Below are positions 3,912-62,255 of a DNA stretch of 64,000 nt, piece by piece. Positions within the stretch are counted from its first letter, which is position 1, and each line of letters starts with the position of its first letter. The notes beneath the pieces were generated by a model that did no database searches, had not been told where the DNA came from, and was given only the letters and a program-made list of their open reading frames with translations. The position numbers and the translations under genes are program-made. This stretch comes from an uncultured cyanobacterium (GTDB taxonomy: Bacteria > Cyanobacteriota > Cyanobacteriia > Cyanobacteriales > Cyanobacteriaceae): assembly GCA_963710605.1 (NCBI GenBank), contig CAVQBA010000007.1, positions 320,001-384,000 on the forward strand, read 5' to 3'.

Positions 3912-4931
3912 TTAGGACAACAACCTTGCTTGAGCAGTCGGATGAGGTAGAGAAGAAGAATTTTTTTCGTTTAAAGAATTATATAAAGCAAAACCACCGA
4001 GTGCTAGAGCAAGTATCCCTACAACCATACCAGCTATTTTTAATTTACTAGTCCCAACATTTTCTTCATCAATATCATCATCATCAGCCGGCTCTTCACT
4101 GTGGGCAAAACGGTTATAAAGAAAATCTAAAGCATAGTTACGTAATTCATAGTAACGAGGATCTTCGGTGATACGACCACGTTTACGAGGACGATCGAAA
4201 GGAATCTCAACAATTTCACCAATATTTGCGGCAGGGCCGTTTGTCATCATCACTAATCGATCGGCTAAAAATAAAGCTTCATCAATATCGTGAGTAATCA
4301 TCAGAATAGTTAGATTATGATCACGCCAAATTTCTAATAATTCTTCTTGCAATTCTTCTTTGGTAATTGCATCTAAAGCTCCAAATGGCTCATCTAAAAT
4401 AAGCACTTCAGGACGAATAGATAAAGCACGAGCGATCGCAACTCTTTGTTTCATCCCCCCTGAGATTTGAGTTGGTTTTTTTTCAGCGGCTTCGGTTAAA
4501 CCAACCATTGCCAAATGTCTTTCTACAATCTCATTTTTTTCTTCTTTACTTTTATCAGGATAAACTGTGTTAACTGCGATATAGACATTATCATAAACTG
4601 ATTTCCAAGGTAAAAGACAATAGTTCTGGAACACCATCATCCGATCAGGGCCTGGTGAAGTGATTGTCTCGTTTTTGAGTTTAACCGTTCCTGTCGTCGG
4701 TTGATTAAACCCTGAAACCATATTTAATAGAGTCGATTTACCACAGCCAGAGTGACCAATAACACAGACAAATTCTCCTTGTTTTATCTCAAGATTAACT
4801 CCATCAAGTACAACATAATCGCCATCAGGAGTTGGATAAACTTTGGAGACATCTTTGATACTGACAAAAGAACTTTTGTCTAAAGTTGAAGTTGAAGAAC
4901 TAGTCGAGTTGCTATTCATTAAAGATGACAT
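3912..4931 (-). CDS. nrtD: Nitrate-type ABC transporter ATP-binding subunit (NrtD-like) with C-terminal acidic linker and hydrophobic helix
   Basis: GHSGCGKST, ISGGMKQRV, LDEPFGALD, MMTNGPAA; last gene of the nrt-type operon. Confidence 0.85.
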   Translation of the reverse strand: MSSLMNSNSTSSSTSTLDKSSFVSIKDVSKVYPTPDGDYVVLDGVNLEIKQGEFVCVIGHSGCGKSTLLNMVSGFNQPTTGTVKLKNETITSPGPDRMMVFQNYCLLPWKSVYDNVYIAVNTVYPDKSKEEKNEIVERHLAMVGLTEAAEKKPTQISGGMKQRVAIARALSIRPEVLILDEPFGALDAITKEELQEELLEIWRDHNLTILMITHDIDEALFLADRLVMMTNGPAANIGEIVEIPFDRPRKRGRITEDPRYYELRNYALDFLYNRFAHSEEPADDDDIDEENVGTSKLKIAGMVVGILALALGGFALYNSLNEKNSSSLPHPTAQARLLS

Positions 4932-5033
4932 TTGGTAGTTATTTGGAGTTTATAGTTTATAGTTTACAGTTAGTTAATTAATAAGTTCAGATAAATTGCT
5001 CACAACTAAAATACAAGTTGCGATTACTGACAA

Positions 5034-7061
5034 TTATTTTTTACTAATGAGTTTGTTGTTATCGTCGATTAAAATTTCAGCTACTTGATAATCACGAGTA
5101 ATTGAGAATCTTTCTAAATAACCGATCGGATCATCAGGACTAAAGACCATTTTGTCAAATAACTCAAAGTTTTGACGATCGGGTTCAATATGGGGTATTC
5201 CTAATTGGCGACAAGCCGTACCAAAAAGATCAGGGCGACGTACTCGTTCTAAAATTTCGATCCAATTACGAGGGAAGGGAATATAACCCCAACGAGCTAA
5301 TTGAGTCAAAATCCATAAACCCTCTGCTCTACCCGGGCAGTTGGAGTGATCTACATAAAACTGATGGAATCTTAATAATGATTCAGGTTCAGTTTCCAAG
5401 TTACGAGAAAATGGTCCAACCAAACCCGGACGAATATATTCTGCTTGAACACCAACATAATCAGGTAAAGTTAGTAATTCTAATATTTCTTCACGATTAC
5501 GACGATCGTCACAATATTCACAAGCTTCAATCAAAGCTTTAACTAAAGCAATATGAGTATTAGGATGAGAGGCTATCCAATCTTCTTTGACACCCAAAAC
5601 TTTTTCAGGATGTCCGGGCCATATTTCAAAATCAGTGGCAATCACATAACCTAAATCTTCTAGTACCGCACGAGAATTCCAAGGCTCACCAACACAATAA
5701 CCATCGATGTTACCAGCTTTTAGGTTAGAAACCATTTGTGGTGGGGGAATAACCATCAAGTTGACATCTAAGTCAGGATCGATTCCACCTGAGGCTAACC
5801 AATAACGTAACATTAAGTTGTGCATCGAGGAAGGATGCACCATGCCAAAGTTATGAACTTTATCAGGAGTATGGTTTAAAGCTTGTTTAAGTTCCTCTAA
5901 ACTACTTACGCCCATTTCAGCAAATGTTTTACTCAAAGTGATAGCGTTACCATTACGACTTAAAACTAATGCTGTAACGATCGGTATAGCGGTTTGAACC
6001 CCTGCTCCTCCTACTCCTAAGGTCATACTAAAAGGCATTCCTGCTACCATTTGGGCGGCATCTAAGCGTCCTGTGGCTACCCCGTTAGCAATTTCTTTCC
6101 ATGATGGTTCACGAACTAAATTAACTTCTTCTAATCCATGAGCTTTAAAAAAACCTTTTTCTTTAGCAATAATTAAAGGTGCACAATCACTAAGAGGAAT
6201 AAAACCAATATCGAGGTTGATTTTTTCTAAACCATTTGCTTTGATTTCCAGAGTTTTTGCTTCAACTTGTCCCACTTTTTTGGAACGTTTTTGTTGATTA
6301 AGGAAGTAAACTATTTCATTACGTAAGGTGTAATATTGAGGATGATTGACTACTTCTAATCTTTTACGTGGTCTAGCCATCGGCACTTCTAATATCTGCC
6401 CGATATGTGCTTGTGGGCCTGTTGTTAGCATCACGACTCGATCGGATAACAATAGTGCTTCATCCACATCATGAGTAACCATAACGCAAGTAACCTGGTT
6501 TTCTTGAACAATCTCCATTAATTTTTCTTGGAGATTACCACGAGTAAGAGCATCTAAAGCACCAAATGGTTCATCTAAAAGCAAGACTTTGGGTTTGATT
6601 GCTAAAGCACGAGCGATCGCAACCCTTTGCTTCATCCCCCCTGATAGTTCTTCAGGACGTTTATTAGCGGCGTGTCTAAGACCAACTAAACTAATATTTT
6701 CATTGACGATCGTTCTTTTTTCTTTATCTGAACGATCTTTAAAAACTCGATTTACCGCCAAAGCGATATTTTGTCTTACAGTCAACCAAGGTAACAAAGA
6801 GTAGTTTTGAAATACAACCATTCTTTCAGGGCCTGGTTCAACTACCTCCTTTCCTTCTAAGACAACCCCTCCTGTACTAGCAGGATACAAACCCGCAATG
6901 ATATTAAGTAAGGTAGATTTACCACAACCTGAGTGACCAATCAAAGAGATAAATTCACCTTTTTGGATTTTTAAATCGATATTTTTTAAAGCAATATATT
7001 CACCACCATCGGGTAAACCAAACACTTTATCGACATTATCTATTTCTATAAAAGAAGACAT
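5034..7061 (-). CDS. nrtC: Nitrate-type ABC transporter ATP-binding subunit with C-terminal NrtA-like regulatory domain (NrtC/CmpC family)
   Basis: ABC domain plus GFIPLSDCAPL...IPPPQMV..YCVGEPWN domain; 675 aa. Confidence 0.88.
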   Translation of the reverse strand: MSSFIEIDNVDKVFGLPDGGEYIALKNIDLKIQKGEFISLIGHSGCGKSTLLNIIAGLYPASTGGVVLEGKEVVEPGPERMVVFQNYSLLPWLTVRQNIALAVNRVFKDRSDKEKRTIVNENISLVGLRHAANKRPEELSGGMKQRVAIARALAIKPKVLLLDEPFGALDALTRGNLQEKLMEIVQENQVTCVMVTHDVDEALLLSDRVVMLTTGPQAHIGQILEVPMARPRKRLEVVNHPQYYTLRNEIVYFLNQQKRSKKVGQVEAKTLEIKANGLEKINLDIGFIPLSDCAPLIIAKEKGFFKAHGLEEVNLVREPSWKEIANGVATGRLDAAQMVAGMPFSMTLGVGGAGVQTAIPIVTALVLSRNGNAITLSKTFAEMGVSSLEELKQALNHTPDKVHNFGMVHPSSMHNLMLRYWLASGGIDPDLDVNLMVIPPPQMVSNLKAGNIDGYCVGEPWNSRAVLEDLGYVIATDFEIWPGHPEKVLGVKEDWIASHPNTHIALVKALIEACEYCDDRRNREEILELLTLPDYVGVQAEYIRPGLVGPFSRNLETEPESLLRFHQFYVDHSNCPGRAEGLWILTQLARWGYIPFPRNWIEILERVRRPDLFGTACRQLGIPHIEPDRQNFELFDKMVFSPDDPIGYLERFSITRDYQVAEILIDDNNKLISKK

Positions 7062-7189
7062 AATTTTTAATAATGGAGAATGGAAAATGGAGAATTGAGA
7101 ATAATTCTACAAACTCAGTGAACACTAATACGGATATTGAGCGAAGTTGAAATTCGGTATATCTAAATTGAGAACAATAATTGTTAGAA

Positions 7190-9918: not shown

Positions 9919-11323
9919 ATGAATCAAAAAATACGGATCGAAAAAGATAGTCTAGGTGAGATTGAAGTACCACAAAATCGTTATTGGGGTGCACAGACGC
10001 AACGATCGTTACATCACTTTAGTATCGGTGAAGACATTATGCCGCTCGAAGTTGTTTATGCTTTAGCGATCGTGAAAAAAGCTTCGGCAATCACAAACCA
10101 CGAATTGGGTAAATTGTCAACAGAAAAAAAAGAATTAATTGTTCAAGTAGCTGATGAAATCACAGCAGGAAAACTAAACGATCATTTCCCTCTGTATGTG
10201 TGGATGACAGGTAGCGGTACGCAGAGCAATATGAACGTCAATGAAGTGATTGCTAATCGTGGCATTGAAATAACAGGTGGTGAATTAGGCAGTAAAAATC
10301 CGCTCCATCCTAATGACCATGTTAATATGTCTCAATCTTCTAACGATACTTTTCCTACCGCCATGAATATTGCCGCGGCGATCGCAATTAACGATCGATT
10401 AATACCTAAAGTAACTAAACTAAGAGACGCTTTAAACGAAAAAGCCCAAGAATGGAAAGAGATTATTAAAATTGGTCGGACACATTTACAAGATGCTGTA
10501 CCTTTGAGTTTAGGACAAGAATTTTCAGGTTATGTCGGGATGTTAGATGATAACATAGAGCGAATTCAACAAGCCCTCCCCGGTATTTATCAACTAGCTT
10601 TAGGAGGAACAGCTTTAGGTACAGGAATCAATGCCCCGAAAGGTTTTGCCGAGAAATCAGCCCATCATATCGCTCAACTAACAGATTTACCTTTTGTCTC
10701 TGCACCGAATAAGTTTACCGTAATGGGTTCTCATGACGCTATGGTAATGTTAAGTGCTGTTTTAAAAACCTTAGCAGGTTCGTTGTATAAAATTGCTAAC
10801 GATATTCGTTTACTTGCTTGTGGTCCTAGAGCGGGTTTAAATGAGTTAGAATTACCTGTAAATGAGCCGGGTTCGTCAATTATGCCCGGTAAAGTCAATC
10901 CAACTCAATGTGAAGCTTTAGCAATGGTAGCGGTGCAAGTGATGGGTTATGACAATGCGGTTGCTTTTGCGGGTGCTAGTGGTTATTTAGATATGAATGT
11001 TTATAAACCGATGATGATTTATAATGTTTTGCAATCGATCAAAATTTTAGCTGATAGTTGTAATAACTTTACTGATTTTACAATTAAAGACATCAAAGCT
11101 AATCAAAGTAGAATTAGCGAGTTAGTAAACCAGTCGTTAATGTTAGTAACTGCTCTCAATCCCAAGATTGGTTATGATAAGGCTTCTAAAATTGCTCATT
11201 TAGCCTACGAAAACGATCTTACCCTCAAACAAGCCACAATCGCAGTTAGGTTATCTTAGTGAAGCTGAATTTGATGATTGTATCGATTTACAAAAAATGG
11301 CATACCCACACAACAATGAGTAA
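9919..11323 (+). CDS. fumC: Fumarate hydratase class II; apparent +1 frameshift near 11245 removes the last 25 codons as written
   Basis: [28 protein letters not shown] signature. The shifted frame continues [18 protein letters not shown] to TAA at 11323. Confidence 0.95.
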
Positions 11324-11399
11324 TGAGTAAGGAGTAAGGAGTTAAGAGTTAAGAGTTAAGAGTTAAGAGTTAAGAGTTAAGAGTTAAAAGTTAAGAGTT
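11318..11399. repeat. Heptamer tandem repeats (GAGTAAT/GAGTAAG/GAGTTAA; STRR type)
   Basis: Directly visible tandem 7-mers. Confidence 0.9.
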
Positions 11400-11461
11400 G
11401 TATTTGAAGGTAGAGATAATTACTTAATTCTAAATTCTGAATTCTATGCTATATTATTAAT

Positions 11462-11487
11462 AACATCTGAATACACGTTCAGATATT
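11462..11487. promoter_or_regulatory. SmtB/ArsR-type operator (12-2-12 inverted repeat)
   Basis: AACATCTGAATA-CA-CGTTCAGATATT with a TGAA...TTCA core, immediately upstream of the metallothionein RBS. Confidence 0.8.
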
Positions 11488-11517
11488 CATTTAATTAAAC
11501 AAAGGAGAAAAATTAAG

Positions 11518-11688
11518 ATGGTAGTTGAAACCAAAGAAGTAGTATGTGATTGTGGTTCTTGTTCTTGTAAAGTAGATATGAGCGATGCAATTTTCTCAGA
11601 AGGAAAATATTACTGTTGCCAAAATTGTGCCAATGGTCACATTAATGGTGATAGCTGTAAGCACGATGGTTGTAAATGTGGTGGCTAA
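11518..11688 (+). CDS. smtA: Bacterial metallothionein (56 aa), not in ORF track
   Basis: MVVETKEVVCDCGSCSCKVDMSDAIFSEGKYYCCQNCANGHINGDSCKHDGCKCGG; 10 Cys and 2 His; AAGGAG RBS. Confidence 0.95.
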   Translation: MVVETKEVVCDCGSCSCKVDMSDAIFSEGKYYCCQNCANGHINGDSCKHDGCKCGG

Positions 11689-11764
11689 AATTTGAAGTAA
11701 ATTACATTCGTGTAATGATGGATTGATAGTTGGTGTGCAACATGAACAATCACAAAATCAATTA

Positions 11765-12166
11765 TCAATCTACTTCTGCTAAATGTTCCACCACAGCATG
11801 ATATAAGTCTAAGACATGATGATCTAATAGACGATAATAAACTTTTCTGCCTCTTTTTTGATAAGCAACTAAACGCATCACTTTTAATGTTCTTAATTGA
11901 TGAGAGACAGCAGATTCACTCATATTTAATGTAGCGGCTAAGTCACAAACACATAATTCTTGTTGAGCTAAAATCGATAAAATTCGTAAACGGTTAGAGT
12001 CACCTAAAAGACTAAAAAATTCTGCCATTCGTTGGGCTTTTTCTACATCTAAGGTTTGGTTTTGATATGTTTCGATTAAGTCTGATTCGATAATGTGTGG
12101 GCTACAAGAAGCTAAATTGTTAGTATCGGTAGTTATAGGTAAATTTGGTTTGAGTGATTTAGACAC
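11765..12166 (-). CDS. smtB: ArsR/SmtB family zinc-sensing repressor
   Basis: MAEFFSLLGDSNRLRILS, ELCVCDLA, SESAVSHQLR, alpha5 site DHHV...EHLAE. Confidence 0.88.
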   Translation of the reverse strand: MSKSLKPNLPITTDTNNLASCSPHIIESDLIETYQNQTLDVEKAQRMAEFFSLLGDSNRLRILSILAQQELCVCDLAATLNMSESAVSHQLRTLKVMRLVAYQKRGRKVYYRLLDHHVLDLYHAVVEHLAEVD

Positions 12167-12335
12167 TTTTTGTTTTTTGCAGATCGAATATTTACTTAAT
12201 CATTGTAACAACTAACCCTCGATCGACAATGAATTCTTTATTGTATCAAACACCTTTAGTATTATCCAGATGATTACATATCATTATTTCGATCGACATG
12301 ATGAATTAAGTCAAATCATAATTAAGACGTAATTC

Positions 12336-12363
12336 GTAGGGGTAGAATATATTCTACCCTTAC
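12336..12363 (+). repeat. REP-like GTAG palindrome
   Basis: GTAGGGGTAGAATATATTCTACCCTTAC. Confidence 0.6.
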
Positions 12364-12468
12364 CACTTTTTAAGTCATACCAAATTTAAAGAACAAAAGA
12401 ACTAATCCCCCCTAGCCCCCTTAAGTAAGTGGGGAACAAGAAAATCGTTAATTACTAATTAATCATTG

Positions 12469-13887
12469 CTAATTATTCCCATTAGTAATTTCTAATTCAA
12501 TACCCACAAAATCACTAATTCTTTCTCCTATTTCTTGTAACTGGCTTTGGTAAAGCAGTTTAGAACTAATATGATATTCATCAATATTACCTAAATAGTT
12601 AGGTACACCAAGATAGATACGAGAGTAAAATTGAATCGGTTTACTTCTAGCAATCGCACCTGCCCTATCATGATATTCTTTAAGTAAAAATGCAGGGATA
12701 AATTTAACGGTGCTAATATTTTCGCTCAAAGACGATTGCTTATCCCATGTAATATTACCAAAAAATTGATGACGAATTCCTAATTTTATCTGACCATCTA
12801 AATCGATCGATAATACTCGTTCAAACTTATGAATAAAAAGAGAAGGAAACAAATACTCTGCTATTGCTAAAAAAGGAAAGATAAAAGCAGTTAATATTAA
12901 TACATAAATACTTGAAAAGATTGAGCCTATCATAAACAGTGTAATAACAAGCCAAAAACAAGGACTGTAATCAAGACGATCGCAATCGGGATAATAAATC
13001 TCTATCTTATCCGAATCTTGTTTTACCTTAACACGATGAGGATAAAATGGAATTTTGCCAAAAGAATCTTTTTCTAAAACGTCTGATTTACCTTCTAAAG
13101 CAGTTTTAGCTGACTGTGCCGACTCAAAACGTTTATCTAAACTAGAAGCAGTCATTTGTTTGAGCCAACGACGAAAATAAGAAGAAAGATTTTTACGATC
13201 GTATTTTATTTGTCCTTGTACAGATGGTAAGCTACTCGGATGAGAACCAGTTAAAGCATAGATAATCGTCATTCCGAGGCTATACAAATCCGATGCACGA
13301 GTTGTCTGCCCTCCAAATTGCTCTAAGGGCATATAACCATAACTACCGACAATAGTAATTGTGCCTTCTGCTTTTTGAGCTACCGTTTGCACCGAACCAA
13401 AATCGACGAGATAAACTTCCCCAACACTATTTCCCGATCGATTAGTGATTAAAATATTACTAGGCTTAATGTCTCGATGTATTACAGGGGGGTTTTGTTG
13501 ATGGAGATAAAGTAATATATCAAGCATTTTCTGAGCAAATTCAATTAACTCTGCTTCAGTAAATCTTCTTCCTCGATCGATAATATTCTGTAAAGAATCA
13601 GCATTGATATAACTTTGCACTAAAGCAAAACCGTGTGTATCTTCAGTTTCAACTTCAAAGTAATCGATATATTGAGGAATAGCAGGATGAGTTAGATTTT
13701 TTAAGATATTTGCTTCTCGCTCAAATAATTTTAAATCATCCCAACCAAAATCATCATTAAAACGTAATATCTTGATTATCACCGAACAGTTATTAATAGT
13801 ATCTTGAGCTAAAAAAGTTGTCCTACCTGATTTGTGACTTAATTGTTGTTCGATTCTGTATTTACTTTTAAGTATTAAATTTTTCAT
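12469..13887 (-). CDS. Hanks-type Ser/Thr protein kinase with C-terminal transmembrane segment (paralogue 1)
   Basis: IHRDIKPSNI, DFG, GSYGYMPLEQ. Start set at MKNLILK by alignment with the neighbouring paralogue. Confidence 0.92.
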   Translation of the reverse strand: MKNLILKSKYRIEQQLSHKSGRTTFLAQDTINNCSVIIKILRFNDDFGWDDLKLFEREANILKNLTHPAIPQYIDYFEVETEDTHGFALVQSYINADSLQNIIDRGRRFTEAELIEFAQKMLDILLYLHQQNPPVIHRDIKPSNILITNRSGNSVGEVYLVDFGSVQTVAQKAEGTITIVGSYGYMPLEQFGGQTTRASDLYSLGMTIIYALTGSHPSSLPSVQGQIKYDRKNLSSYFRRWLKQMTASSLDKRFESAQSAKTALEGKSDVLEKDSFGKIPFYPHRVKVKQDSDKIEIYYPDCDRLDYSPCFWLVITLFMIGSIFSSIYVLILTAFIFPFLAIAEYLFPSLFIHKFERVLSIDLDGQIKLGIRHQFFGNITWDKQSSLSENISTVKFIPAFLLKEYHDRAGAIARSKPIQFYSRIYLGVPNYLGNIDEYHISSKLLYQSQLQEIGERISDFVGIELEITNGNN

Positions 13888-52296: not shown

Positions 52297-52768
52297 TTAA
52301 AATTCTATTAGCATAGGCTTTTCTAACTCTTGAAGAATATTAGGAGAAATTGCAATGGAATAACTCAAATCACCTGCATTAAAATAAATTTTATCAACAT
52401 TGAGTAAATCTCGATCCATAACTAATTTAAGTCCAAAAGCTTTTGCTAATGGTGGGAGTTCTCCAAAATTACATCCCGTAACCTCTTTTAGCTGTTCTAT
52501 ATTTGCTAATCTCACACTTTTAGAACCAATAGCACGATTAATTTTAGATAGATCAGCTTTTCTTGTTCGCAGGAAGGGCGACAATAACAAATCCTTTTTC
52601 TCCTTGTTTTTTATACCGAACAAAAAGAGCTTTTGCTTGTTGCTCATATTTTGTACCTAGAGTTTGATGGTACTCTTCTGCACTACCTGCTGGTTCATGA
52701 TGAATTTCTTCGTATTCTACATGATTATCATCTAAATAGCATTTTACTAATTCTTTTACACTTTTCAT
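52297..52768 (-). pseudogene. YbaK/ProX-family aminoacyl-tRNA deacylase, split by +1 A in a run at 52558-52561 (possibly a sequence error)
   Basis: N-half YEEIHHEP...QAKAL..VALPANKK joins C-half ADLSKI..VRLA..TGCNFGELPPL..MD..IYFNAG; about 156 aa when repaired. Confidence 0.85.
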
Positions 52769-52804: not shown

Positions 52805-54007
52805 TTAACCTCTTTTGAGGATGTGTGATGTAGAAATCTCAAAAAAATCTCCATACGAAAAACTAGAGAAATTTTCTGTAATTTGTCGCTCGAGACTGTG
52901 CAAGTCTAAGCTTTTTGGTGAATCGATCGCTGAGATGAAAACATTACCGGGAGAATAAGTAAGTACAACACGACCTGATATGTAGATACAAATTTCACGA
53001 ATAAACTCATCAATTGCTTTTTTTAATGGAGAATACCAGTGTCCGCCAACCACTAATTCTGTCCACTCATAATCTAATGATGTCTTTACTCTTAGCTCTC
53101 TTTGAGTCAGATTTGCTGTAGCAAGAGCTTGGAATGAACTTAATATCGCTTTTGCCCCCGGTGCTTCTCTTACTTCATGGTTTTTAATTTGCCCTAATGG
53201 TATGTCTTCAAGACCATTGAATCGACCAACACCATATAAATTACCGATAAAGTTTAATTCTTCTATTATCTGTAATAGTGTTTTATTTTCTCCGTTAATA
53301 GCGACTGGGAGTCCAGATTCAAAAGTTAATGATATGGTTTGATTCTTTTGAGGGCTATCGTAAGGGCTATTTGTCCAACTAAATGCTTCTTCAGGGACAA
53401 AATATTGCAGATTGTCGAGTGAACCGTTTTCAATCACTCTACCCCAGACATTTTGGTCAACACTAAAAATATTTTTTTCATCAAGTAATGATAATTTTTT
53501 TAGCTCTCTGAGTTTGGTCTCACGACAAATATTTTCTTTTAGAAAAGGGTTGCCAATATTTAACTCTGGAGCAAGAGTTCTGATGGATAGATTAAACCTC
53601 GAAGCACTATTTTGATGATAACAGCTAGTATGAACTATGCAGTCCGCTTGATATTGTCTGGCTATATCAACGGCTTTTTTTGCCATTAATGGTCGGCTCA
53701 AAGACGAACAAATCGGAAATACATTCTGATAGAGACAATTTACTTTTATACCTTGAGTAATAAAATCATCGACAAATTCATCGACAGCATTAATGTAAAG
53801 ATATTCAACTCCTAATAATTGGGCTTTTTTAGCAATGTCACTCTTTGGCGACGATGACTCTAAGTTAATGTGTAATGCAATTACGTCTAGATTATTTTGC
53901 ACTGCCCAATGCAAAAAATAGGTACTATCAAGACCTCCAGAATACAAAACAATAGACTTGTTTGTTTGTTTCATATCGTGTAAATTATCAATAAGACTAC
54001 CGACCAT
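52805..54007 (-). CDS. Argininosuccinate synthase-like ATP-dependent enzyme (divergent paralogue)
   Basis: PP-loop LYSGGLDS, SLSRPLMAK, FSVDQNVW, GVGRF..LE..K..EAPG. The aspartate loop TGKGNDQ is replaced. AGGAGG RBS before ATG 54007. Confidence 0.85.
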   Translation of the reverse strand: MVGSLIDNLHDMKQTNKSIVLYSGGLDSTYFLHWAVQNNLDVIALHINLESSSPKSDIAKKAQLLGVEYLYINAVDEFVDDFITQGIKVNCLYQNVFPICSSLSRPLMAKKAVDIARQYQADCIVHTSCYHQNSASRFNLSIRTLAPELNIGNPFLKENICRETKLRELKKLSLLDEKNIFSVDQNVWGRVIENGSLDNLQYFVPEEAFSWTNSPYDSPQKNQTISLTFESGLPVAINGENKTLLQIIEELNFIGNLYGVGRFNGLEDIPLGQIKNHEVREAPGAKAILSSFQALATANLTQRELRVKTSLDYEWTELVVGGHWYSPLKKAIDEFIREICIYISGRVVLTYSPGNVFISAIDSPKSLDLHSLERQITENFSSFSYGDFFEISTSHILKRG

Positions 54008-54118
54008 ATGTGACCTCCTAATTACTTTTATTTTTTTGTACGATGTTTTTGAGTCAATTAGGTAGAGCAAATGAGCAAAACCATTGCCCTACCTACCTAC
54101 TTGACTAATAAAAAACAA

Positions 54119-55134
54119 TTAAAAATTTAGAGTCCGAGGCGAGCAAAAGTGATCTCGCACAGACCATAAATCATTTTTAATTAGCGTTCTTTGCAACCAA
54201 CGACAATTATTACTAGCGAATTTAGATTCAAATGCTACTCGACCGTGGAACGATTTTCTGTTGTTTATTAACAACATATCTTTAGCTTCGAGAACAATAT
54301 TTTTCACAACAAAAGATTCAAGACAAATACTTTTAAATTCATCTAATGCTTTTTGAGCGTCACCATTAACACCTTTCATGTCTGTAAATTCAACATTAAA
54401 TTGCGGAACAATCAAATTACTACCTTCAATTACCGGCATCAATTTAGCAACAAACATCTCTTCTGTATCGCTATCTGTTTGAAATGACTCGGGAGGTGTA
54501 ACATAAAACTGTTTTTTCTTCAGCTTATCAATCAATTGACAGGATAAATTTTTAATAATGTCCTTTCCATTGACGATTTTAGTAACAACCTTTACTTTTG
54601 GTTCTTCCCTAAGGCATAACACTGCCAAGTGATCCGGGCTGTCACCGCCTAGGTGTACGTCCTCGCAGTGAAGTGGAAGAGCTCTAAGCGAACCCGCATT
54701 AGATATTTGCTCTATAGATTCTTCCTGAGGATAGAGATTATGTACTAATTGACCCTCCTTCTCATTCTTATAAGCAATCGGTTCACCCACCAACTGTGCC
54801 ATTGCTAGTAAAGAGCCTTCGCTAATTTTATTAATAAAATGACTATCATCATTGGGCTTCATATTTGCTACATTACCAATAGGAATATTTTTAATCAAGA
54901 GATACCCATCACCAGACAAATCTCGTTTGAGATTAATCACTTTTTCGTAAATACGATCTGGTAATTCTTTGCGAAAGACATGTAGTACTTCGTATAAAAA
55001 AGCTTCGAGGTTTTCGTTGGGATTAGATTTTATCTTTCTTAAAGATTGCTCTAAACTAAAACTTTCCTTATCTGATAGTTCTGCTACATTGTGTTCTGTT
55101 TTGGGAGTTACCGTAGTGTAGTTGTCAATAACAT
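54119..55134 (-). CDS. Clavaminate-synthase-like (TauD superfamily) Fe(II)/2OG dioxygenase; 5' end apparently frameshifted
   Basis: LPLHCED (HxE), L.INN...HGR, RWLQR. The frame stays open about 65 codons upstream of the GTG at 54940; the nearest ATG (55134) is off by one base. Confidence 0.82.
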
Positions 55135-55652
55135 TTTTTTAGTTTTTTTTTAGTTGTGTGTTCGTGTCATAAGTCCTTAATATTTTTCCTGGACAACTCC
55201 TTTATAATTTCTGGAAACGTAGAAAAACAACTCCAAACCTCGCAAAAACGTTACTTCATCTATTAGCCTAAAAGTCTTGTCTAGTAATAATTTCAACGTT
55301 CGATCGAAGTACCAAGTTATTATTGAAACGATAACTTGATATTTTTCTTTAATTCAGGTAACTATGACTTTTTTATGTTTTACTCATCAGTCATTAACGT
55401 TAATGAGTAGTTTTGTAATATTTCTTTACACTTATGATGAAAACTCAAAGGTTAGTTTGAATATTTGAGTGCTGTTGTATCCTTTGACTGAATTTGTCAA
55501 CTTAATTTTCAGGCAAAGCTTCTGATAAGATAAAGCCCAAAAATTTTAATCAACTTTTAGAAAATTAATATAAGTCTTAATTCAAATTAACTGTCGTCTA
55601 AGATATTTCGTTTAAATTCGATCGTCATCAGTTTGAACTGAGATACAATTAC

Positions 55653-58600
55653 TCAAATTTCCTCTAGCCACGTTTTTAAAGCTGACTCCAAATTTTCTTG
55701 TTCGGGTAAAAATCCTCTCAATGGAGGTTCGATTGGCTCTTGGGTAATAAAAGCAATAGCAACAACACAACCTTGTTGTAAAAATTGACAAATCTTTTCG
55801 ATCGTATCAGTTAAGACACAATTATCAATAATAATGCTTTTAATGGCAGAAGGTTGACGTGTTCTATTCTGATTTAAAAATTGACGTTTAAGTTCAGGTA
55901 ACGAATTAATTTCAGGAAGATCGAGATCTGAAAATGTACTCTCAAATAAGAGGTTAGAAAATTCTTGTCTTATTTCTTGTTCTTGGGTCAAATATGTCAG
56001 ACTAGAAGCGTCAATATAAATTAGTTCTGGATGCTCTTGTAAAAGTACAAAATCTGAATTTTTTCTATTTATAGAAATTATATTTTGAGATGAAGTTACT
56101 TGTTGAAAAAAGACTGGATATAAAATTTCGTGTGACATTACCCATAGTGCTTCCACAACAGACGATTGCACCCACTCAGATTGATCTTGAAGTAAGGGAA
56201 TCAGCTCTTGAATTGCTTTGTCACTTCCAATTTTCGCTAATGCTACCACAACAGACGATTGCACCCACTCAGATTGATCTTGAAGTAAGGGAATCAGCTC
56301 TTGAATTGCTTTGTCACTTCCAATTTCCCCTAATGCTGCCACAACAGACGATTGCACCCACTCAGATTGATCTTGAAGTAAGGGAATCAGCTCTTGAATT
56401 GCTTTGTCACTTCCAATTTCCCCTAATGCTGCCACAACAGACCGTCGCACTCGATCAGATTGATCTTGAAGTAAGGGAATCAGCTCTTCAATTACTTCTT
56501 CACTTCCAATTTCCCTTAATGCTGCCACAACAGACCGTCGCACCCACTCAGATTGATCTTGAAGTAAAGGAATCAGCTCTTCAATTACTTCTTCACTTCC
56601 AATTTCCCTTAATGCTGCCACAACAGACGGTCGCACCCATGTAGATTTATCTTGAAGTAAGGGAATCAGCTCTTTGATTGCTTTGTCACTTCCAATTTCC
56701 CTTAATGCTACCACAACAGACGATCGCACATCTTCAGATTGATCTTGAAGTAAGGGAATCAGCTCTTGAATTACTTCTTCACTTCCAATTTTCCCTAATG
56801 CTACCTGAACAGACCGTCGCACTCGATCAGATTCATCTTGAAGTAAGGGAATAAGCTCTGGAATTAATTCTTCACTTCCAATCTTCCCTAATGCTTTCAC
56901 AACAGACTCTCGCACATCTTCAGGTTGATCTTGAAGTAAGGGAATCAGCTCTGGAATTACTTCTTCACTTCCAATTTCCCCTAATGCTACCACAACAAAG
57001 TATCGCACCCACTCAGATTGATCTTGAAGTAAGGGAATCAGCTCTTGAATTACTTCTTCACTTCCAATTTTCCCTAATGCTTTCACAACAGACTCTCGCA
57101 CATCTTCAGGTTGATCTTGAAGTAAGGGAATCAGCTCTGGAATTACTTCTTCACTTCCAATTTCCCCTAATACTTCCACAACAGACCGTCGCACTCGATT
57201 AGATTCATCTTGAAGTAAGGGAATCAGCTCTGGAATTACTTCTTCACTTCCAATTTCCCCTAATGCTATCTGAACAGACAATCGCACCCACTTAGATTGA
57301 TCTTGAAGTAAGGGAATCAGCTCTGGAATTACTTCTTCACTTCCAATTTTCCCTAATGCTTCCACAACAAACGATCGCACCCGCTCATATTCATCTTGAA
57401 GTAAGGGAATCAGCTCTGGAATTACTTCTTCACTTCCAATTTTCCCTAATGCTTTCACAACAGACGATCGCACCGAATCAGATTGATCTTGAAGTAAGGG
57501 AATCAGCTCTTTGATTGCTTTGTCACTTCCAATTTCCCCTAATGCTTCCACAAGAGACGATCGCACATCTTCAGATTGATCTTGAAGTAATCCTTCCACA
57601 AGAGACGATCGCACCCATGTAGATTTATCTTTAAGTAAGGACACAAAAATAGGAACGGCTTCCTCGGTTCTTATCTTAATCAGAGATTGCTTTATAGGTT
57701 CTTTAATTCGATCGTCTTGAATATAGATAACAATTTTATCAGTAATTGCCTTTTTTAAATCTGCCGAACAATTTTCATATTCTGTAATACCTTCTAAGGC
57801 TAATAAATATAACTTAATTTGATAAAAATCAATATCGCAATCAATTCCCGATTCAAACCTTATCATTGATTGATATAAAGCCAGTTTATGTTCTTCTAAG
57901 TCTTTGTTATCCAACCCTAACCAAAATAAATAAACTTCTTTCCACTGGCTATCAAATAGACGATAACTTCCTGTTGCCACCGAAGATGAGGTGACGGGTA
58001 GTTGGTGATTCAAGAAAAATTTATGACTATCGATGGCTTTTGCGGCAAAAAACTCATGTAAAGTAGTGTGAGGAAAAGCATAAACTTTTTCGTCATTAGT
58101 AGGATATCTATCCACCAAATTTAACCAACCAAACTGACAAGCCAAAAGAAATTGTTCTTCAGAAATATGATCGAGAATAAAACTTTGACTCAAACGAAAA
58201 CGACTCGGATTATCCATTGCTTTTAAAGCTATTTTCGCCAATGCGGAAAACAAACTTCTTTGCTTTGTTTGAGTTAATGATGATTGATTTTGATTCCATC
58301 GCTCACTATACTTATTTACGAAACTTTGAAATAATTGAGCTTTGGCGGTAGGAAGCGTTTGGCGAACACTCCACATTTCACATAACAAACATAGATATAG
58401 CGGATTGCGAACTACCTCATTAATATTTTGATATTTTGTATCTTTTAATTTCTCGATTAATGAAGTTGCTGTAGTTAATTCGGAAAAATTACCAAGTTGA
58501 TTATTTTGTTTCCATTCATCAAAAAATTTGAGAATATATTCTTTTATCTGTTCATTATCAAATTGTTTGGCACGAAAAGTAGAGTAATTAGTGAGATTAT

Positions 58601-59774
58601 GATTACTTTGACTATCCCATGTTGTCAGTCTTGAGGCGATAATGATTTTGGCTTTCTTTTTAATCCAATCTTTCTCCTGACTTAATTTATCATTTAACCA
58701 AGAAGTTGGTTGACTACCAATTAGGGCAATTTCATCTAAGCCATCTAGTATAAAATAAATCTTACTTTGATTAAAATCATTGTTTAAAAACTCTTGAATA
58801 TGAGCAGTTTGGTCTTCTTCTGTCGGATATTTATCATCAATTTCCTGACGCAAAAGATTCTTGCAATATTTCTCAACAGAGCAGTCTTTTTCTTTTAATG
58901 AAGCGATACTAATATAAATAGGATAACCAATATCTTCTCTTAAAATATACTCAGCTATTTTAGTAAGTGATGTAGTTTTTCCTGCACCTGCTTCTCCGAT
59001 TAAACAGACATCTTTTTTGAAATCTGTAGTTAAGATAGTATCTAAAAATTCTTGAAATAAATATTCTTGAACAATAACATTTTTATCTTCTTGTAAATCA
59101 TCGTAATTTAAAGGATTGTTAGGTTCACAGTTTTGTTTGCGTGTGGGTTGGTTTTTTCTTTCTATTAATTCCAAACGCACAAAAATATCTAAGTCTCTGC
59201 CTTTCGGTAATAAAGGACGACGAATATTTTCTATTTGTTTGATTAAAATATTGTTGAAAATACTCTTCCAATCACTATTAACAGGAAAAAGTTTATTTTT
59301 GAAGTATTCAAAGTTTTTATCGATCGAATTACTATCTTTTAGGTCGTATTTTAAAGGTATATTAATTATGAAAAATCCTGTATCGTTCTTTTTTTTAAAT
59401 ATTGTCAAGCTAATTAACTGTAATGTATCTAACTCAATTAAAGCTTTTTTTATTTTCTGTTTATACTTTGTTAGTTCCTTATCCGATATTTCTGGCTCAT
59501 TTTTACAAATGACATGATATAGATTACCAATAATAAAACCTATTTCTGTTCCATCTTTTTTATTTTTACCTGAAATTTTTAAAGACGTTATTTGGCTTTG
59601 GTTTTGTTCTAATTTCAGAAAAGGAACAATATTTCTTCTTGACTGCTCGTATTCTCCTAAATCACTACTTATATCTATTTCACTTTGTTGATTTTGATTT
59701 ATCTTTGTAAAATATTTTTGGAGGATCTCGAATATAGCACTAAGTATTTCTAAACAGGGCAAAGTATTCGTCAT
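55653..59774 (-). CDS. NACHT NTPase with HEAT-repeat array (NLR-like STAND protein)
   Basis: Walker A LIGEAGAGKTT, Walker B FILDGLDE, NPLYL, F.H.TLHEFFAA, 31-aa HEAT repeats. Confidence 0.92.
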   Translation of the reverse strand: MTNTLPCLEILSAIFEILQKYFTKINQNQQSEIDISSDLGEYEQSRRNIVPFLKLEQNQSQITSLKISGKNKKDGTEIGFIIGNLYHVICKNEPEISDKELTKYKQKIKKALIELDTLQLISLTIFKKKNDTGFFIINIPLKYDLKDSNSIDKNFEYFKNKLFPVNSDWKSIFNNILIKQIENIRRPLLPKGRDLDIFVRLELIERKNQPTRKQNCEPNNPLNYDDLQEDKNVIVQEYLFQEFLDTILTTDFKKDVCLIGEAGAGKTTSLTKIAEYILREDIGYPIYISIASLKEKDCSVEKYCKNLLRQEIDDKYPTEEDQTAHIQEFLNNDFNQSKIYFILDGLDEIALIGSQPTSWLNDKLSQEKDWIKKKAKIIIASRLTTWDSQSNHNLTNYSTFRAKQFDNEQIKEYILKFFDEWKQNNQLGNFSELTTATSLIEKLKDTKYQNINEVVRNPLYLCLLCEMWSVRQTLPTAKAQLFQSFVNKYSERWNQNQSSLTQTKQRSLFSALAKIALKAMDNPSRFRLSQSFILDHISEEQFLLACQFGWLNLVDRYPTNDEKVYAFPHTTLHEFFAAKAIDSHKFFLNHQLPVTSSSVATGSYRLFDSQWKEVYLFWLGLDNKDLEEHKLALYQSMIRFESGIDCDIDFYQIKLYLLALEGITEYENCSADLKKAITDKIVIYIQDDRIKEPIKQSLIKIRTEEAVPIFVSLLKDKSTWVRSSLVEGLLQDQSEDVRSSLVEALGEIGSDKAIKELIPLLQDQSDSVRSSVVKALGKIGSEEVIPELIPLLQDEYERVRSFVVEALGKIGSEEVIPELIPLLQDQSKWVRLSVQIALGEIGSEEVIPELIPLLQDESNRVRRSVVEVLGEIGSEEVIPELIPLLQDQPEDVRESVVKALGKIGSEEVIQELIPLLQDQSEWVRYFVVVALGEIGSEEVIPELIPLLQDQPEDVRESVVKALGKIGSEELIPELIPLLQDESDRVRRSVQVALGKIGSEEVIQELIPLLQDQSEDVRSSVVVALREIGSDKAIKELIPLLQDKSTWVRPSVVAALREIGSEEVIEELIPLLQDQSEWVRRSVVAALREIGSEEVIEELIPLLQDQSDRVRRSVVAALGEIGSDKAIQELIPLLQDQSEWVQSSVVAALGEIGSDKAIQELIPLLQDQSEWVQSSVVVALAKIGSDKAIQELIPLLQDQSEWVQSSVVEALWVMSHEILYPVFFQQVTSSQNIISINRKNSDFVLLQEHPELIYIDASSLTYLTQEQEIRQEFSNLLFESTFSDLDLPEINSLPELKRQFLNQNRTRQPSAIKSIIIDNCVLTDTIEKICQFLQQGCVVAIAFITQEPIEPPLRGFLPEQENLESALKTWLEEI
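56146..57640 (-). repeat. 93-bp coding tandem repeats (HEAT): 15 full units plus truncated first and last
   Basis: Near-invariant TCTTGAAGTAAGGGAATCAGCTCT core every 93 bp. Confidence 0.92.
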
Positions 59775-61405: not shown

Positions 61406-61482
61406 TTGACAATTGACAATTGACAATTGACAATTGAGAATAACTTTTTACTTTTTACTTTTTACTTCATACTTACCCATTA

Positions 61483-61661
61483 CCTATACCCTATTCCCTA
61501 TACCCTATTCCCTATACCCTATTCCCTATACCCTATTCCCTATACCCTATACCCTATTCCCTATACCCTATTCCCTATACCCTATTCCCTATACCCTATT
61601 CCCTATACCCTATTCCCTATACCCTATTCCCTATACCCTATACCCTATACCCTATTCCCTA
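61483..61661. repeat. Heptamer array CCTATAC/CCTATTC (about 25 units)
   Basis: Directly visible between convergent genes. Confidence 0.92.
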
Positions 61662-62255
61662 ATTAATGTTGCCAAGGTGTTGGAATGGCCAAAAAATAAA
61701 TGTGGCTTTGCCGATGACGTTTTCGGCGGGTAAAAATCCCCAGATGTGTGAGTCATTACTGTTGTTGCGATTATCACCCATGACAAATAATTTTCCTTCA
61801 GGTACAGTTAAAGATGGTAATTCATATTGTGGTTTATCGTTGATGTAATTTTCTGTTAATGGTTCGTTATTCACGTAAACAACACCATTTTCTACTTTCA
61901 CTGTATCGCCTCCGTGAGCAATGATACGTTTAATAAATGCTTGAGATTTATCATAACCGATCGCTTGTAATTGTAACGGTGGTGTAAAAACGACAATATC
62001 TTGATTATCTGGTGGGTGTAAATGATAAGAAACTTTTTCGACTACAAGTCGATCGCCAATATCAAGAGTAGGAAACATCGACTCAGAAGGAATAAAACGA
62101 GGCTCAGCGACAAAAATACGGATAATAATGGCTAAGACTAAACCTAAACTGACAATTAAAAAATTCTCTTTAAATAGAGTGGCAATTGAAGAAGTAGATT
62201 TTGGCTCATTAGTTGATGTTTTGGTTGTCTCGGAAGTATCTGAGGATGTACCCAT
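61659..62255 (-). CDS. lepB: Signal peptidase I
   Basis: IPSESMFPTL (catalytic Ser), FIKRII (catalytic Lys), GDNRNNSNDS. Confidence 0.95.
   Translation of the reverse strand: MGTSSDTSETTKTSTNEPKSTSSIATLFKENFLIVSLGLVLAIIIRIFVAEPRFIPSESMFPTLDIGDRLVVEKVSYHLHPPDNQDIVVFTPPLQLQAIGYDKSQAFIKRIIAHGGDTVKVENGVVYVNNEPLTENYINDKPQYELPSLTVPEGKLFVMGDNRNNSNDSHIWGFLPAENVIGKATFIFWPFQHLGNIN

Follow-up and report, generated by a model that had tools for sequence, protein, structure and literature searches.

An ArgG-derived PP-loop enzyme between a dioxygenase and a tRNA deacylase in a cyanobacterial genome: a candidate for nitrile formation

Genes at the locus

The DNA considered here, called the window below, is a stretch of 64,000 nucleotides from an uncultured cyanobacterium of the Cyanobacteriaceae (assembly GCA_963710605.1, contig CAVQBA010000007.1, positions 320,001 to 384,000 of the forward strand); positions are counted from its first letter. 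That the genome is cyanobacterial is borne out by six Photo_RC matches; among the control genomes, Synechococcus alone has any. The minus strand of the window carries a gene for an ArgG-like protein, with a dioxygenase gene directly upstream and a tRNA deacylase gene directly downstream. We give about even chances to the reading developed below, i.e. that the protein is an ATP-dependent adenylating enzyme of the PP-loop class, which derives from ArgG, does not make argininosuccinate, and lies in the middle of a horizontally mobile three-gene cassette with a nitrile as its most likely product. The gene and the motifs on which this reading leans are the following:

52805 to 54007, minus strand: ArgG-like PP-loop ATP pyrophosphatase of 400 amino acids (open reading frame and translation, Pfam, NCBIfam scores, AF2 model)
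53924 to 53941, minus strand: PP-loop SGGLDS of the ATP site, residues 23-28 (translation, positions checked)
53594 to 53632, minus strand: remodelled loop HTSCYHQNSASRF, residues 126-138 (alignment, contact mapping)
53444 to 53464, minus strand: SVDQNVW, residues 182-188, in which S182 and D184 correspond to S197 and D199 of the nitrile synthetase ArtA
53159 to 53209, minus strand: EDIPLGQIKNHEVREAP, residues 267-283, in which E267 is kept and R280 stands in place of a citrulline-contact Tyr

The longest version of the open reading frame (ORF) extends to a TTG at 54070. The ATG at 54007 is favoured as the start, because the closest homologues open with MTGLLIDNL at the same position of the alignment. 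Both Pfam domains of ArgG are present in the protein (PF00764 and PF20979, with E-values of 5e-28 and 4e-41).

Motif pattern and substrate contacts

The first-pass annotation of the window had described an ArgG paralogue that retains the PP-loop, the SxDxNxW motif and two conserved Glu, while the loop that binds aspartate and the motif ENRxxGxKSRxxYExP have changed, with a presumed loss of the aspartate contacts; this description is borne out in each of its parts. SGGxD[ST] and SxDxNxW, tested as features of canonical ArgG, both occur in the window protein, and the two conserved Glu are E193 and E267. The PP-loop residues S23, G24, G25 and D27 are invariant in both family alignments (A1 and A2), and E193, E267, E278 and E281 are likewise invariant across them; in the 40-sequence alignment A1 the same holds for Q132, N133, R137, S182, D184, E193, E267 and R280. 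The aspartate loop reads HTSCYHQNSASRF and the second motif EDIPLGQIKNHEVREAP. Within the region of the latter, Q273 is a one-residue insertion unique to the window protein.

For human argininosuccinate synthase (ASS), the accessible part of PMC13289927 lists T119 and D124 as contacts of aspartate, and Y87, N123, R127, S189, E191, E270 and Y282 as contacts of citrulline. Measured against this list, the two aspartate contacts are replaced by C129 and S134 in the window protein, and Q132 occupies the place of G122 in the ArgG aspartate loop. Five of the seven citrulline contacts are kept (Y93, N133, R137, E193 and E267); the other two differ, with V191 for S189 and R280 for Y282.

Are these changes peculiar to one protein? 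A motif census covered the best 120 database homologues of the window protein, with the loop defined as H-x5-QN[ST]-x2-R. This QN[ST] loop is found in 87 of them, and 86 of the 87 also have ExRExP; the canonical GND loop occurs in 30, always together with ExYExP (30/30). Of the other three homologues, two do not fit the loop pattern and the third has an unusual loop. Because the QN[ST] loop and ExRExP co-vary, the altered motifs mark a selected subfamily rather than chance or decay.

The curated models agree with this separation: the window protein stays under every cut-off, with 233.1 bits for TIGR00032 (cut-off 268.2), 274 for NF001770 (334) and 287.2 for NF038212 argG_rel (425). Furthermore, a separate canonical argG, with the motifs HGCTGKGNDQVRF and KSREIYEAP, lies on another contig of the same genome, so the term paralogue is correct. 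We are nearly certain that the window gene is not a canonical ArgG. That it could encode a second ordinary argininosuccinate synthase is scarcely credible: the presence of both Pfam domains and an identity of 32% to mycobacterial ArgG would fit, but the two equivalog cut-offs (TIGR00032 and NF001770) are missed, T119 and D124 are lost and the genome has its canonical gene elsewhere. A sample of 400 other genomes of the phylum contained no close homologue of the window protein (E<=1e-75).

Relationship to the nitrile synthetase ArtA

To our knowledge, the first description of ArgG-like nitrile synthetases dates from 2025; the source paper for ArtA is reportedly that of Zeng et al. in ACS Catal 2025. 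As far as it is characterized in the accessible part of PMC13060819, ArtA, an enzyme of the ArgG-like type, converts an amide into a nitrile by dehydration, without a second substrate, and Q146, S197 and D199 are its key amide-interacting residues. ArtA is the sole characterized relative we found with the QNS/EVREAP signature (HTANLSQNSLRRL and EVREAP in 9LEH/9LEI). In the alignment with 9lei (chain offset 29), its triad Q146/S197/D199 corresponds to Q132/S182/D184 of the window protein, i.e. to the Q of QNS and to the S and D of SxDxNxW. Judged by its sequence, the window gene is a member of the recently recognized ArgG-like nitrile-synthetase family, placed in an uncharacterized branch of it.

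The phylogeny was calculated with FastTree from 165 sequences, ArtA's own sequence not being among them. The ArtA-type clade is characterized by the loop ANxSQN[ST]LRRL and by KVLEVREAP, receives 100% local support, and is composed of enterobacterial, Streptomyces and other members. The window protein clusters with three metagenomic proteins (P0003-P0005; 60-62% identity, 99% support), and together they form the sister of a Kordia group (97% support), far from the ArtA-type clade.

Conservation of the gene neighbourhood

Two neighbours of the ArgG-like gene complete the putative cassette:

54119 to 55138, minus strand: clavaminate-synthase-like Fe(II)/2-oxoglutarate dioxygenase (Pfam TauD, NCBIfam, PDB search, alignment with Kordia)
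52297 to 52768, minus strand: free-standing aminoacyl-tRNA deacylase of the YbaK/INS family (two Pfam tRNA_edit pieces, comparison with Kordia)

Gene order was compared across 143 foreign loci, comprising 6 from the branch of the window (clade A), 25 from an actinomycete branch (clade B), 7 from a Bacillota branch (clade C), 4 unclassed, 23 of the ArtA type and 78 canonical argG loci; a metagenome scan yielded the latter 78 and only 2 loci of the family. In all six foreign clade-A loci, as in the window, the dioxygenase gene is located directly upstream on the same strand. It adjoins the ArgG-like gene in 18 of the 25 clade-B loci, in 6/7 of clade C and in 3/4 of the unclassed ones, giving 33 out of 42 foreign loci of the non-ArtA branches. 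No dioxygenase stands beside the gene in any of the 23 ArtA-type or the 78 canonical loci; the latter count also argues against an ordinary ArgG. The link to dioxygenase products that the first-pass annotation had drawn is supported by a strongly conserved gene order.

A YbaK-type deacylase gene follows in four of the six foreign clade-A loci, namely in Kordia jejudonensis, Actinokineospora spheciospongiae, an actinomycete metagenome-assembled genome (MAG) and a short metagenome contig. For 8 further clade-A homologues, the longest contig has the same length, to the base, as that of a YbaK-like match. The other two loci (L053 and L068) are near-identical and come from Solirubrobacterales; here, a divergent paralogue of leucyl-tRNA synthetase (LeuRS) of 745 amino acids lies instead directly upstream of the dioxygenase and ArgG-like genes (4863-7100). 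It scores 468 bits against a leuS cut-off of 548, compared with 940 bits for the canonical LeuRS of the genome, which contains three LeuRS-like genes in all (genome G402; the other two at C1:300605-302716 and C1:394195-396456). The paralogue may be a resistant or repurposed synthetase. In the same two loci, a gene for an AraC-type regulator and one of the glyoxalase/bleomycin-resistance family come after the dioxygenase/ArgG-like pair.

The pair adjoins genes of non-ribosomal peptide synthetases (NRPS) in Kordia, Actinokineospora and Streptomyces, but not in the window. In the Kordia jejudonensis locus (10067-13450), a protein of 1127 amino acids with an adenylation domain and eight phosphopantetheine-binding stretches is encoded just downstream of the cassette. 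In Streptomyces sp. NRRL S-31 (L021, 1-10917) and similar actinomycete loci, the dioxygenase and ArgG-like genes are accompanied by a PF04199 'cyclase' and a second dioxygenase of the VioC/OrfP type with a DPD motif, and the cluster adjoins A-T-C and A-T-reductase NRPS genes (A, adenylation; T, thiolation; C, condensation).

The dioxygenase

The NCBIfam matches of the dioxygenase are GntD, VioC and clavaminate synthase, all below their cut-offs. Its iron ligands are found in LHCEDVH and SFHGR, and the catalytic columns as well as both C-terminal Arg are conserved. The best sequence match in the PDB is AsnO (2og5, 6e-19), followed by a Lys 3-hydroxylase and by Arg hydroxylases.

The deacylase and possible producer protection

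Intact copies of the deacylase gene are present in Kordia, in Actinokineospora and in the actinomycete MAG (locus L003), and the pieces encoded in the window share 57-68% identity with the Kordia copy. Apart from the window deacylase, the genome has no free-standing PF04073 match; its one other match to this family lies inside an ORF of 600 amino acids, taken to be prolyl-tRNA synthetase (ProRS).

Work from the Chang laboratory, in the part accessible to us (Millar et al. 2026, PMC13149037), describes cluster-encoded tRNA deacylases that shield organisms making non-canonical amino acids and serve as markers of the corresponding clusters; examples are the INS-family FthB (fluorothreonine) and BesG of the AlaX family. 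Two of the clusters, AlfC and FuzA, also hold an Fe/2-oxoglutarate dioxygenase, and the cluster mining described there covered the AlaX family only (PMC13149037, same part). A word search of the paper found none of the words argininosuccinate, nitrile and YbaK. A deacylase beside amino-acid-modifying enzymes, in conserved co-location, is what we find in the window and in four of the six foreign clade-A loci. Since this fits the deacylase-marked pattern of PMC13149037, we read the window genes as a cassette for a non-canonical amino acid, and consider it very probable that the ArgG-like gene belongs to such a cassette. No description of the dioxygenase-linked branch was found in the literature searched; supplements, e.g. 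the tR3D tables of PMC13149037, may list such clusters.

Proposed reaction and its alternatives

In the order dioxygenase, ArgG-like enzyme and deacylase, the cassette would yield a free non-canonical amino acid. The first step would be hydroxylation, by the dioxygenase, of a polar L-amino acid; candidates are Asn, Gln and compounds of the citrulline type. The ArgG-like enzyme could then hold the head group of the amino acid through Y93, N133, R137, E193 and E267, and adenylate the oxygen of the terminal carboxamide or ureido group, as ArgG does to citrulline. Q132, S182 and D184 would hold the -C(=O)NH2 group while AMP is eliminated, leaving a nitrile, or a cyanamide from a ureido group; this outcome is proposed because the aspartate pocket is gone and the three residues appear to grip the amide. 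Finally, the deacylase would strip the analogue from mischarged tRNA and so protect the producer's own translation. Of these elements, carbonyl-oxygen adenylation without aspartate is probable, while a nitrile as the outcome of the reaction falls slightly short of an even chance. The placement in the family, the motifs, the linkage of the genes and the separate canonical argG are observations; the substrate, the outcome of the reaction, the succession of steps and the protective role are inferred.

A special case would start from asparagine: beta-hydroxylation as by AsnO, followed by dehydration of the side-chain amide by the ArgG-like enzyme, would lead to a beta-hydroxy nitrile amino acid, 'beta-cyanoserine'. 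Such a compound would be an isostere of beta-ethynylserine, a mimic of threonine, and might be tolerated only through the clearing of mischarged tRNA by the INS-family deacylase. We regard this particular product as decidedly unlikely.

The first-pass annotation had suggested a different nucleophile or an intramolecular cyclization, and had not considered a nitrile. Both suggestions keep some probability, since the window protein is not a member of the ArtA clade, but ArtA, with the same signature, uses no second substrate according to the accessible text of its description. In the first of the two, an external amine or ammonia would attack the adenylated carbonyl and give an amidine or guanidine amino acid, e.g. 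an arginine analogue. This would continue the ancestral chemistry of ArgG, N133, R137, E193 and E267 are kept in the family, and the additional polar residues H131, N276 and H277 of clade A, at positions taken by S, V and L in the ArtA type, might accommodate a second substrate of small size. Such a ligase is nevertheless decidedly unlikely: Q132 takes the position that G122 has in the aspartate loop of ArgG, the contacts T119 and D124 are missing, the characterized relative ArtA works without a second substrate, and the neighbourhood comparison found no conserved amine-supplying gene in the cassette.

In the second, the alpha-amine of the substrate itself, or the hydroxyl group introduced by the dioxygenase, would attack the carbon of the adenylated amide or ureido group, to form a cyclic amidine or isourea, e.g. 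of the iminoproline type. The loss of the aspartate pocket together with the retained head-group contacts speaks for this. The lack of the dioxygenase partner in all 23 ArtA-type loci suggests that the hydroxyl matters for the branch of the window; YbaK/INS deacylases are a ProRS-associated family, and the other PF04073 match of this genome lies in the presumed ProRS ORF; and a pyrrolidin-2-iminium congener co-occurs with auranthine, according to the accessible part of PMC3397440. On the other hand, the literature searched contains no characterized ArgG-like cyclase, the Q/S/D triad exactly matches that of the nitrile-forming enzyme as far as the latter is described, and the linkage to a LeuRS paralogue does not suggest a proline analogue. 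We therefore consider a cyclase unlikely.

What is more challenging for nitrile formation is a series of observations that weigh against it. In overall sequence and fold, the window protein is as similar to canonical ArgG as to ArtA: the PDB sequence search gave E-values of 6e-51 for the nitrile synthetase (9LEI/9LEH) and 2e-59 for mycobacterial ArgG, the family profile placed 9LEI at the top with 320.1 bits against 319.3 for ArgG 4u7j, and a Foldseek search with the AF2 model (predicted local distance difference test score 93) listed ArtA 9leh_B first (E 1.2e-36, template modelling score 0.87/0.91), level with 4u7j (3.0e-36). Because total score and modelled fold tie in this way, only the motifs discriminate between the two as nearest relative. 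Both the tree and the loop motif place the window protein outside the ArtA-type clade, and its 287 bits on NF038212 remain below the cut-off of 425 that ArtA-type bacterial proteins pass (588.7 bits for a Franconibacter protein, 488 for P0094). Because the protein sits apart from that clade, the chemistry may differ among clades; and as none of the 23 ArtA-type loci has a dioxygenase, the dioxygenase-linked branches may treat the adenylated intermediate differently. Hydroxylases of Asn, Lys and Arg are all at much the same distance from the dioxygenase, which thus gives no substrate assignment. Lastly, neither neighbouring gene is regular as assembled, as set out in the following section.

Frameshifts, decay and assembly error

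In the assembly, the deacylase is encoded in two overlapping frames, with a 1-nt frameshift near 52553-52575 and the extra base in AAGAAAAGC. The first listed start of the dioxygenase is a GTG at 54940, yet the alignment with its Kordia partner shows that conserved coding continues in frame to about 55120, and there is no in-frame ATG, GTG or TTG for these conserved 60-odd N-terminal residues. An ATG at 55132-55134 misses the frame by one base; an ATT at 55127-55129 is in frame. Possible causes of the anomaly are an unusual start codon (ATT), an assembly indel or a real lesion.

The two irregular genes could mean that decay of the cassette is under way in this genome, and that the ArgG-like gene is a non-functional remnant with no present role. 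We judge this quite improbable: the ArgG-like ORF has its full length, with each of the 31 residues that are invariant in the family (alignment A1) in place, and the N-terminal region of the dioxygenase is still conserved at the protein level. Furthermore, canonical argG, an essential gene in this phototroph, is likewise split by a 1-nt indel (locus L001, 2055-2060; contig C4 of the same genome, around 431,660), and genome completeness is 84.9% in 7 contigs, where six same-family relatives reach 99-100%. For these two reasons, scattered assembly indels are the simpler and likelier cause of the frameshifts.

Further observations on the window and related loci

Two candidates for additional cassette genes were rejected. 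A gene for threonyl-tRNA synthetase (ThrRS) beside the cassette in the actinomycete MAG might have been a resistant extra copy, but no other ThrRS was found in that genome, which makes it a housekeeping gene. The M20 amidohydrolase gene downstream in the window has orthologues of 73-77% identity in all five same-family relatives examined and none in the foreign loci; it is a core gene conserved in this bacterial family and lies outside the cassette. None of the window's other neighbours occurs within the 18 kb compared in three of the relatives, and no clean insertion site could be drawn. The GC content over the cassette is unremarkable and positions 40000-64000 contain no tRNA gene, so that composition gives no hint of a recent transfer. 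Neither the window nor any of five related loci yielded an Rfam match, and a scan for promoters and terminators, which returned fewer sites than shuffled controls, was uninformative.

An ORF of 1373 amino acids (55653-59774, minus strand) contains a long series of nearly identical units, each some 31 residues in length (IPELIPLLQD...VR..V..ALG.IGSEE); the opposite-strand ORFs at 56090-56644 and 56891-57202 look like by-products of this repeat. The ORF at 61434-61733 (plus strand), composed of PIPY(T/S)L(F/Y) repeats and overlapping the 3' end of a minus-strand ORF (61659-62255), is probably repeat DNA rather than a gene.

Implications

The finding points to much larger, unstudied branches of the ArgG-like nitrile-synthetase family, which are tied to an Fe/2-oxoglutarate dioxygenase. 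If our interpretation holds, the cassette would be a compact three-gene route to a new non-canonical amino acid, and its central enzyme a possible ATP-driven biocatalyst for nitriles, or else for amidines or cyclic products. The use of deacylases as cluster markers would extend from AlaX to the YbaK/INS family. Should 'beta-cyanoserine' be the product, it would be the first free nitrile amino acid from an ArgG-derived enzyme, and would open a dioxygenase-coupled branch over at least five phyla (Cyanobacteria, Actinomycetota, Bacteroidota, Bacillota and Pseudomonadota).

Comparison with known systems

With the beta-hydroxylases AsnO, VioC, OrfP and KDO1, the window dioxygenase shares the HxE...H iron ligands, the two C-terminal Arg and the clavaminate-synthase-like family, but it is only about 25-30% identical to any of them. 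It differs from AsnO in a Glu at the position of D241, which we take to be the Asp that reads the side chain. The deacylase resembles FthB and BesG as a free-standing tRNA-editing gene beside enzymes of a non-canonical amino acid; FthB is likened to it by family (INS) and gene setting, not by sequence.

QueC and ToyM are PP-loop ATP pyrophosphatases of 7-deazapurine synthesis, which form a nitrile via an adenylated amide according to the accessible part of PMC13060819. The window protein belongs to the same enzyme class and has a weak Pfam QueC match on its PP-loop region; however, the similarity is confined to the N-terminal nucleotide-binding part (Foldseek E 1e-5, template modelling score 0.30), and QueC, as described in the same part, starts from a carboxylate, with ammonia.

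With ArgG/ASS1, the window protein has in common the two-domain fold, the PP-loop, SxDxNxW and the citrulline contacts Y, N, R, E and E; it is set apart by C for T119, S for D124, Q for G122 and Arg for the citrulline-contact Tyr, numbered after the accessible contact list, as well as by its sub-cut-off scores. With ArtA, it shares the fold, the QNS loop, EVREAP, the PP-loop and the amide-contact triad. The two are only about 30% identical and fall into different clades and on different sides of the NF038212 cut-off; the loop reads SCYHQNSASRF in the window protein and ANLSQNSLRRL in ArtA, the second motif KNHEVREAP and KVLEVREAP, respectively, and the bacterial loci of the ArtA type are without the dioxygenase that accompanies the branch of the window.

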